DNA from: Escherichia coli
GTDB lineage: Bacteria > Pseudomonadota > Gammaproteobacteria > Enterobacterales > Enterobacteriaceae
Assembly: GCF_017348835.2 (NCBI RefSeq)
Contig: NZ_CP071375.1
DNA length: 64,000 nt
Reading direction: 5' to 3' (one strand)
Position numbers and translations under genes: made by a program. Below, piece after piece: positions 51,637 to 52,506 of this stretch. The stretch's first letter is position 1. Each line of letters opens with the position of its first letter. The notes beneath the pieces were generated by a model. That model did not search any database and was not told the origin of the DNA. It saw nothing but the letters and a program-made list of their open reading frames with translations.

Positions 51637-51696
51637 GTTTGTATAGCGTTTTTATGTACACTCTTTATACTGTATATAAAATCGCACTACAGGCTC

Positions 51697-51981
51697 ATGA
51701 ATATGAAACCGGAAAGCAAAGAAGCGCCAATCAATATCAGAGCGAAAGCCTCACAGCGTGACCTGATTGATATGGCAGCGAATCTGGTCGCAAAATCGCG
51801 CACTGATTTTATGCTGGATGCCGCATGCCGTGAAGCGCAAGACATCTTATTAGATCAACGACTATTCATCGTTGATGACGAGCAATACGATGCGTTTCTG
51901 GCTGCCCTGGACGCCCCCATCACTGCTGAGCGTCAGGCCAAAATTAACGCATTGATGAATCGTAAATCGCCATGGGAATAA
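51697..51981 (+). CDS. DUF1778-type (TacA/AtaR-like, ribbon-helix-helix) antitoxin
   Basis: 94-aa ORF; overlaps downstream toxin start by 10 nt (ATGGGAATAA); upstream palindrome TATACTGTATA at 51666-51676. Confidence 0.7.
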   Translation: MNMKPESKEAPINIRAKASQRDLIDMAANLVAKSRTDFMLDAACREAQDILLDQRLFIVDDEQYDAFLAALDAPITAERQAKINALMNRKSPWE

Positions 51982-52457
51982 CGGCTCCTACTCCCCTAAC
52001 GTCTGAACATAATCTGGCTGACTTTTGCTGTTCCGATCACGGGATGAATGAATGGCTAAAAAAGAAAGCGTTAAAAAATCACAGCTCCGGTCTGTCTCGT
52101 GTTTACGTTATCTGTATTGCCAATACCCGCCAGGTAATCGGCTATTACTGCCTTTCTACAGGCAGTATTCAACGTAATTTGGCTCCTGGAGCCATGCGAC
52201 GTAATGCTCCCGAATCGTTGCCTGTTGTCGTATTAGGCAGACTGGCAATTGATCAAGCCTGGGCAGGTAAAGGGTTGGGCGTCGCATTGTTGAAAGATGC
52301 AGTCTATCGCACAATGTCCATAGCTCAACAGGTAGGGGTTCGTGCGCTCATTGTTCATGCCTTAGACGATTCAGTACGCAATTTCTATCTGAAGTATGCC
52401 TTTGTACCTTCACCATTCCAGTCACTTACCTTACTGTATCCCATTACTCTGGAGTAA
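51972..52457 (+). CDS. GNAT-family acetyltransferase toxin (TacT/AtaT/ItaT-like)
   Basis: 161-aa ORF with acetyl-CoA-binding region VVLGRLAIDQAWAGKGLGVALL and conserved SRVYV/GYYCLS motifs. Confidence 0.7.
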   Translation: MGITAPTPLTSEHNLADFCCSDHGMNEWLKKKALKNHSSGLSRVYVICIANTRQVIGYYCLSTGSIQRNLAPGAMRRNAPESLPVVVLGRLAIDQAWAGKGLGVALLKDAVYRTMSIAQQVGVRALIVHALDDSVRNFYLKYAFVPSPFQSLTLLYPITLE

Positions 52458-52506
52458 TTTACCTCTACCGGATAGTCACACTGATGAGTCTGATCCGGCA
52501 GGGATT

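Follow-up and report, generated by a model that had tools for sequence, protein, structure and literature searches.

What is encoded by the two short genes that separate malT from rtcA in an Escherichia coli chromosome (contig NZ_CP071375.1), and does the interval belong to the species as a whole? The stretch analysed here, referred to as the window, comprises 64,000 nucleotides (nt) of this contig, and all positions are numbered from its first letter. In our view, the region is almost certainly the chromosomal type II toxin–antitoxin (TA) operon ataR2–ataT2 (AtaRT2), which was originally reported from E. coli O157:H7 Sakai under the names ECs4261–ECs4262. The AtaR2–AtaT2 pair at the malT–rtcA site is already known, and its enzymatic target, stoichiometry and crystal structure have been published. 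The present analysis adds to the known system the frequency and single-site distribution of the cassette, its insertion junctions and the associated change at the C-terminus of RtcA, a two-site dyad in the promoter region and a close relationship to cassettes that IncF plasmids carry in their tra region.

The gene pair between malT and rtcA

In the window malT occupies positions 48931–51636, with its stop codon at 51634–51636, and rtcA lies on the minus strand, running from 53538 down to 52507. The 870 bp spacer between them holds two open reading frames (ORFs) on the same strand, at 51697–51981 (94 residues) and 51972–52457 (161 residues), which overlap by 10 nt at 51972–51981. A first-pass annotation, prepared from the letters of the window, had described the same two ORFs and the same overlap, and every coordinate that it gave holds. 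It had also given the antitoxin as 94 residues; an ORF of that size is present, but the true start is most likely to be the second ATG, at 51703 rather than 51697, giving a protein of 92 residues. This start is favoured because the gene is 279 nt long in every RefSeq record inspected (Sakai ECs_4261, FRIK2533 and PE164), because the crystallized antitoxin chain (PDB entry 7F37, chain C) begins MKPESK, and because the sole Shine–Dalgarno-like triplet, AGG at 51691–51693, is 9 nt from 51703 and 3 nt from 51697. With this start, ataR2 would extend over 51703–51981 and ataT2 extends over 51972–52457, both on the plus strand. The bicistronic order with the antitoxin first and the overlap of the two genes are those of GNAT/DUF1778 TA systems.

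A sequence search of the PDB found the toxin to be identical to chain B of entry 7F37 over 161 of 161 residues, and the antitoxin to match chain C at 91 of 92. The entry contains two toxin and four antitoxin chains, in agreement with the reported heterohexamer. Since both proteins are essentially identical to proteins that have been crystallized, a chance pair of ORFs can be excluded. Further matches to the toxin in the PDB are TacT (entries 5FVJ and 7F36; E = 7e-44), AtaT (6AJM; E = 6e-20, 75 bits) and KacT (5XUN; E = 3e-17), and the antitoxin likewise matches TacA- and AtaR-type antitoxins. In Pfam, the antitoxin is assigned over residues 12–87 to the ribbon–helix–helix (RHH) family TacA1/DUF1778 (PF08681; E = 3.1e-19), while the toxin matches the GNAT families Acetyltransf_7, Acetyltransf_1 and Acetyltransf_10 with E values of 1e-4 to 1e-3. 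The catalytic residue Tyr139 is present in the toxin of the window, and a GKGLG acetyl-CoA-binding loop at residues 99–103 is shared with TacT in the alignment. There is no glycine in the antitoxin, whether it is read as 92 or 94 residues, compared with 11 in the toxin. The first-pass annotation had placed the pair in the TacAT/AtaRT/ItaRT class, as a DUF1778-type RHH antitoxin with a GNAT toxin, and had named a profile search for the two families as a check; the Pfam and PDB matches bear out this assignment, which can now be sharpened to AtaRT2 itself.

Two GNAT TA modules are carried by Sakai, ataRT (ECs4308–4307) and ataRT2 (ECs4261–ECs4262) (Ovchinnikov et al. 2020, PMC7470980). The Sakai gene order, malT (ECs_4260), ECs_4261 (279 nt), ECs_4262 (486 nt) and rtcA (ECs_4263), gives the second module the same position as the pair in the window. 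Against an O157:H7 genome, five of the 870 nt differ. The toxin is unchanged, being the same RefSeq protein (WP_001301452.1) in O157:H7 FRIK2533 and in PE164; one substitution gives the antitoxin valine at residue 57, where that of O157 has leucine, and the remaining four are silent or intergenic. The best match to the cassette is PE164, a pig isolate, which is 100% identical, and the strain of the window is not O157.

The activity of the identical toxin has been described in some detail. AtaT2 expressed alone kills or arrests E. coli, and its toxicity is removed by co-expression of AtaR2 or by the Y139A substitution (PMC7470980). The condition under which the first-pass annotation would have been abandoned, a GNAT protein that is harmless when expressed alone, is therefore contradicted by the published work. 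The two proteins co-purify as a 99 kDa complex, which was interpreted as two toxins with four antitoxins, and inhibition of translation by AtaT2 requires acetyl-CoA (PMC7470980). In the same study ribosome profiling (Ribo-seq) located pauses at all four glycine codons, without accumulation of guanosine tetraphosphate (ppGpp), and toeprinting located the arrest at glycine codons; matrix-assisted laser desorption/ionization (MALDI) mass spectrometry found an addition of 42 Da on glycyl-tRNA(Gly), which was reversed by peptidyl-tRNA hydrolase, and Ile-tRNA was unmodified (PMC7470980). An independent survey in vivo by liquid chromatography–mass spectrometry (LC/MS) found that AtaT2 acetylates Gly-tRNA(Gly) exclusively, to 70–80% at 45 min (PMC9177977). 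The acetylated aminoacyl-tRNA is barred from elongation, and ribosomes therefore stall at glycine codons and growth stops. As the authors point out, AtaR2 contains no glycine, and its own synthesis is therefore immune to the toxin (PMC7470980). The first-pass annotation had held that substrate specificity could not be read from the sequence. This view can be set aside, as the toxin is 100% identical to AtaT2, whose specificity for Gly-tRNA(Gly) is published (PMC7470980, PMC9177977); the substrate is therefore assignable by identity, and ataT2 can be described as the gene of a Gly-tRNA(Gly)-specific aminoacyl-tRNA N-acetyltransferase. In the operon as it stands in the window, the toxin would be made by translational coupling through the 10 nt overlap. 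The RefSeq labels are still generic ('GNAT family N-acetyltransferase' and 'DUF1778 domain-containing protein'), so the annotation could be upgraded.

Distribution and insertion junctions

Counts of the cassette were taken over 5,426 complete E. coli genomes. The 870 bp cassette is found in 394 of them (7%), always on the chromosome and in a single copy. A query that reached across the two junctions was covered in those same 394, and therefore every carrier has the cassette at the malT–rtcA site. The carriers include O157:H7, O55:H7 and O145:H28. In K-12 MG1655, O111:NM, PKF4 and THO-006 the site is empty, with 42 bp between malT and rtcA, and a spread sample of the non-carriers has the short empty site throughout; a search for other cargo at this position found none among the sampled non-carriers. 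The MalT protein of O111:NM and PKF4 is that of O157, so whether the cassette is present or absent is not tied to the malT allele. The first-pass annotation had taken K-12 to have no known gene between malT and rtcA and had considered the pair to be probably accessory. The alignment of the spacer and the genome counts agree with this: K-12 and O111:NM are without the cassette, the pair is not conserved in K-12, and 93% of the genomes lack it.

Two further observations concern the surroundings of this site. In E. coli EC2001 (NZ_CP133811; locus L007, 2744–2746) a deletion joins a truncated malT to a truncated rtcB, removing the 3' end of malT, the spacer, rtcA and part of rtcB. In addition, 46 plasmid-labelled records in the set of complete E. 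coli genomes match the last 400 bp of malT (51237–51636), a surprising result for a gene of the core chromosome.

Alignments with K-12 and O111:NM indicate that the segment without a counterpart in the empty-site alleles, apart from a hairpin stem described below, extends from 51641 to 52529. The left junction falls directly after GTTT (51637–51640), and homology resumes at 52530 with TCACCCGCG. The G+C content of the cassette is 46%, compared with 54–59% in malT and rtcA, and this low composition is consistent with a horizontal origin. As the non-homologous segment extends into the last codons of rtcA, the 3' end of that gene (52507–52529, minus strand) is altered and the C-terminus of RtcA differs in carriers: translation of the ORF and alignment with K-12 give ...RVMITKLTD* in carriers and ...GVTRVSIE* in K-12. 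Between the convergent ends of ataT2 and rtcA an inverted repeat with the core CCGGAT...ATCCGG forms a hairpin at 52463–52503. It is not followed by a run of T and folds with −16 kcal/mol on the plus strand and −20.3 kcal/mol on the minus strand (z = −4.6). A hairpin with the same core stem fills the 42 bp empty site of K-12 and O111:NM.

The promoter region and alternative readings

A single large, imperfect inverted repeat makes up the spacer between malT and ataR2. Its arms, at 51634–51660 and 51671–51697, are complementary at 21 of 27 positions, and a dyad score as high was reached by only two of 2000 dinucleotide shuffles. Within the arms we distinguish two putative operator sites of 21 bp, O1 (TGTATAGCGTTTTTATGTACA, 51640–51660) and O2 (TGTATATAAAATCGCACTACA, 51671–51691), of which O2 is an inverted copy of O1 (17 of 21 positions), with their centres 31 bp apart. 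A promoter scan predicted a sigma-70-like promoter at 51655–51682, TGTACA and TAAAAT separated by 16 nt; the −35-like TGTACA (51655–51660) lies in O1 and the −10-like TAAAAT (51677–51682) in O2. The small palindrome to which the first-pass annotation had drawn attention, TATACTGTATA (TATAC-T-GTATA), is indeed in the promoter region, at 51666–51676 in the spacer between the two hexamers, but it is merely the centre of the larger two-site dyad, and it overlaps the start of O2. A candidate LexA box at CTGTATATAAAAT was rejected by inspection, as it reads CTG-N10-CGC and its 3' half is CGC rather than CAG.

DUF1778/GNAT TA systems are generally autorepressed by complexes of their RHH antitoxins. 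The layout of the dyad suggests that the operon would be transcribed from the predicted sigma-70 promoter lying within the two mutually inverted sites, which are about three helical turns apart, and that RHH dimers of AtaR2, alone or in the complex of two toxins and four antitoxins, could bind O1 and O2 and so repress their own operon. The two-site dyad is probably the autorepression operator of AtaR2. The literature searched yielded no AtaR2 binding data. The dyad offers a concrete and testable model of the AtaR2 operator. The same dyad is found upstream of plasmid homologues of about 70% identity and of Salmonella tacA, despite different neighbouring genes.

Nothing contradicts the assignment of the locus to AtaRT2, but some caveats attach to it and to the putative operator. 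The GNAT matches of the toxin in Pfam are modest. NCBIfam provides no family for the antitoxin and one far sub-threshold GNAT match for the toxin, a result that we regard as uninformative rather than contradictory. The antitoxin allele of the window carries V57 while the published antitoxin has L57, and entry 7F37 is identified with AtaR2–AtaT2 by sequence. Finally, the operator and promoter are predictions, and the dyad as RNA would form a strong hairpin directly after malT that might also serve malT.

With these points in mind, we considered what else the pair might be. The generic GNAT domains, at best with E of about 1e-4, and a RefSeq label that reads merely 'GNAT family N-acetyltransferase' are what might be expected of an ordinary housekeeping or metabolic acetyltransferase accompanied by a small regulator, but we attach almost no probability to this explanation. 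Published work on the identical protein, AtaT2, already rules it out: AtaT2 is toxic, is neutralized by the product of the upstream gene and acetylates Gly-tRNA(Gly). Furthermore, the pair is absent from K-12 and from most other E. coli genomes, and the sole NCBIfam match, to the equivalog PRK10314 (NF007644) of a non-toxin GNAT N-acetyltransferase, scores 16.7 bits, far below its cut-off of 171. A different possibility is that the operon is AtaRT2 by descent but is a relic in this strain, functionally decayed or silenced through the V57 variant or through lost expression. Other genes in the same window are broken (a frameshifted rtcB and a MazE-like antitoxin gene with an internal stop), and the antitoxin does differ at residue 57 from the one that was studied. 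On the other hand, neither ORF is interrupted, the toxin is the published one residue for residue, and the dyad in the promoter is the same as in Sakai. The exchange of leucine for valine is conservative, and residue 57 is variable in the aligned relatives as well. The V57 allele (WP_000801914.1) is found again in a Panamanian strain that is unrelated, and is therefore an established one. An intact toxin would kill its host if the antitoxin beside it were defective, and presumably the two are therefore in balance. We regard decay as very improbable.

The inverted repeat between malT and ataR2 calls for separate consideration, as it could be mainly an RNA element: a terminator or stabilizing hairpin at the 3' end of malT which, in read-through transcripts, hides the ribosome-binding site of ataR2. 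The repeat begins at the malT stop codon, and in malT read-through transcripts it would fold with −27.5 kcal/mol (z = −6.25) and cover both the AGG triplet and the first ATG. However, it is without a run of T, and no canonical intrinsic terminator was called behind malT or ataT2 in the terminator scan. A search of positions 51400–52800 against Rfam at permissive thresholds gave no match to a known RNA element. The dyad occurs upstream of the plasmid homologues, which have traD beside them on the other strand, and of Salmonella tacA, where malT is absent. Moreover, the −35 and −10 hexamers both fall within the arms, which is typical of TA operators. We consider it unlikely that an RNA role is the principal one, and prefer the interpretation of the dyad as an operator of AtaR2, noting that the two roles could coexist.

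Relatives of the cassette and other genes of the window

The closest known system is AtaRT2 of Sakai, which occupies the same locus and has in common with the pair in the window the toxin (161 of 161 residues), the antitoxin (91 of 92), Tyr139, the absence of glycine from the antitoxin and the 10 nt overlap. The window is distinguished from it by the V57 antitoxin, the non-O157 host and the frameshifted rtcB beside the cassette. TacA–TacT of Salmonella Typhimurium (STM3652/STM3651; PDB entries 5FVJ, 7F36 and 7AK8) belongs to the same family and has the same architecture; TacT is also reported to be specific for Gly-tRNA(Gly) in vivo (PMC9177977), a similar dyad lies upstream of tacA, and TacA is nearly free of glycine, as AtaR2 is. 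TacT is 44% identical to AtaT2, and the TacAT genes are at another site, near yiaF/yiaG, where tacA and tacT are annotated as separated genes in contrast to the 10 nt overlap of ataR2 and ataT2. AtaR–AtaT (ECs4308–ECs4307) and ItaR–ItaT are likewise type II TA systems of the GNAT/DUF1778 kind with aminoacyl-tRNA as their target, and a complex of two toxins and four antitoxins is formed by AtaRT too (PMC7470980). These two systems are found at other loci, outside the window; AtaT shares about 29% identity with AtaT2 (PMC7470980), and AtaT and ItaT have a broader or different aminoacyl-tRNA preference (PMC9177977).

Plasmids commonly carry toxins of this GNAT family, for which there are 4,240 plasmid records. 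The nearest plasmid toxins, 69–73% identical to AtaT2, are on IncF plasmids of Citrobacter, Enterobacter and Klebsiella, and the antitoxin of a Klebsiella plasmid is 78% identical to AtaR2. The Klebsiella plasmid clade has been named KacT3, with 66% identity to AtaT2 (PMC9431474). Such KacAT3-type cassettes share with AtaRT2 the 279 nt antitoxin gene, the 10 nt overlap and the promoter dyad; they differ in being plasmid-borne, and past the stop codon of the toxin they are no longer homologous to the chromosomal cassette. In Citrobacter farmeri (L010, 1232–1983) and Enterobacter roggenkampii (L011, 1232–1995) the cassette is found within the conjugative transfer region of the IncF plasmid, flanked by traD and traT and on the strand that does not carry the tra genes, with a toxin of about 70% identity. 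The three plasmid antitoxins compared and Salmonella TacA contain between zero and one glycine. The chromosomal and plasmid cassettes are homologous from the promoter dyad (GTTTGTATAGCG...) as far as the stop codon of the toxin gene, and the transferable unit is therefore the promoter–operator with the two genes, about 0.82 kb. A prophage origin is unsupported, as relatives in the phage collection are at most 45% identical.

A general proposal of an anti-addiction role has been made for AtaRT and AtaRT2 (PMC7470980). The kinship with the IncF cassettes would allow a more specific version, in which chromosomal AtaRT2 provides anti-addiction or cross-immunity against the traD–traT cassettes: AtaR2, given its 78% identity to the plasmid antitoxin and the same operator dyad, might neutralize the plasmid toxin and cross-repress its promoter. 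If this were true, carrier lineages (O157:H7, O55:H7, O145:H28 and others) could lose plasmids with such cassettes without post-segregational killing. We regard the proposal as speculative and unlikely, and found no published test of anti-addiction by AtaRT2 against the cassettes of IncF plasmids.

Beside the cassette, rtcB (53539–54766, minus strand) is split into ORFs of 211 and 239 residues by the insertion of a single nucleotide, an extra T at 54152 (GCGCAAAATAGAG, compared with GCGCAAAA-AGAG in O157). The gene is also annotated as 'frameshifted' in PE164, the strain with the 100% match. The gene for the RNA-repair ligase, adjacent to a tRNA-targeting toxin, would therefore seem to be a pseudogene here, unless the insertion is an assembly error.

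The window contains another TA cassette, on the plus strand at 39339–39970 between rpnA/yhgA and bioH. Its toxin, of the PemK/MazF family, is intact (122 residues, 39602–39970), and the gene for its AbrB/MazE-type antitoxin (39339–39608) has an in-frame stop at 39417–39419, which is recorded as an 'internal stop' in the annotation of PE164. Re-initiation at the GTG at 39441 would be one possible way in which the intact MazF-like toxin is tolerated. This PemK/MazF–AbrB/MazE cassette is rare, being found in 43 of the 5,426 genomes. The annotation of PE164 also describes hofP as 'frameshifted', at approximately 15771–16189 on the minus strand when converted to the coordinates of the window; with hofP counted on the basis of that annotation, hofP, rtcB and the MazE-like gene make three disrupted genes in 64 kb. 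In the interval between glgP and glpD, PE164 has a gene for a PstS-family substrate-binding protein and a hypothetical gene (PE164 343977–346102, corresponding to approximately 60400–62550 of the window), and Sakai has three genes (ECs_4270–4272), including one for an ABC ATP-binding protein. The genes between glgP and glpD look like another accessory insert.

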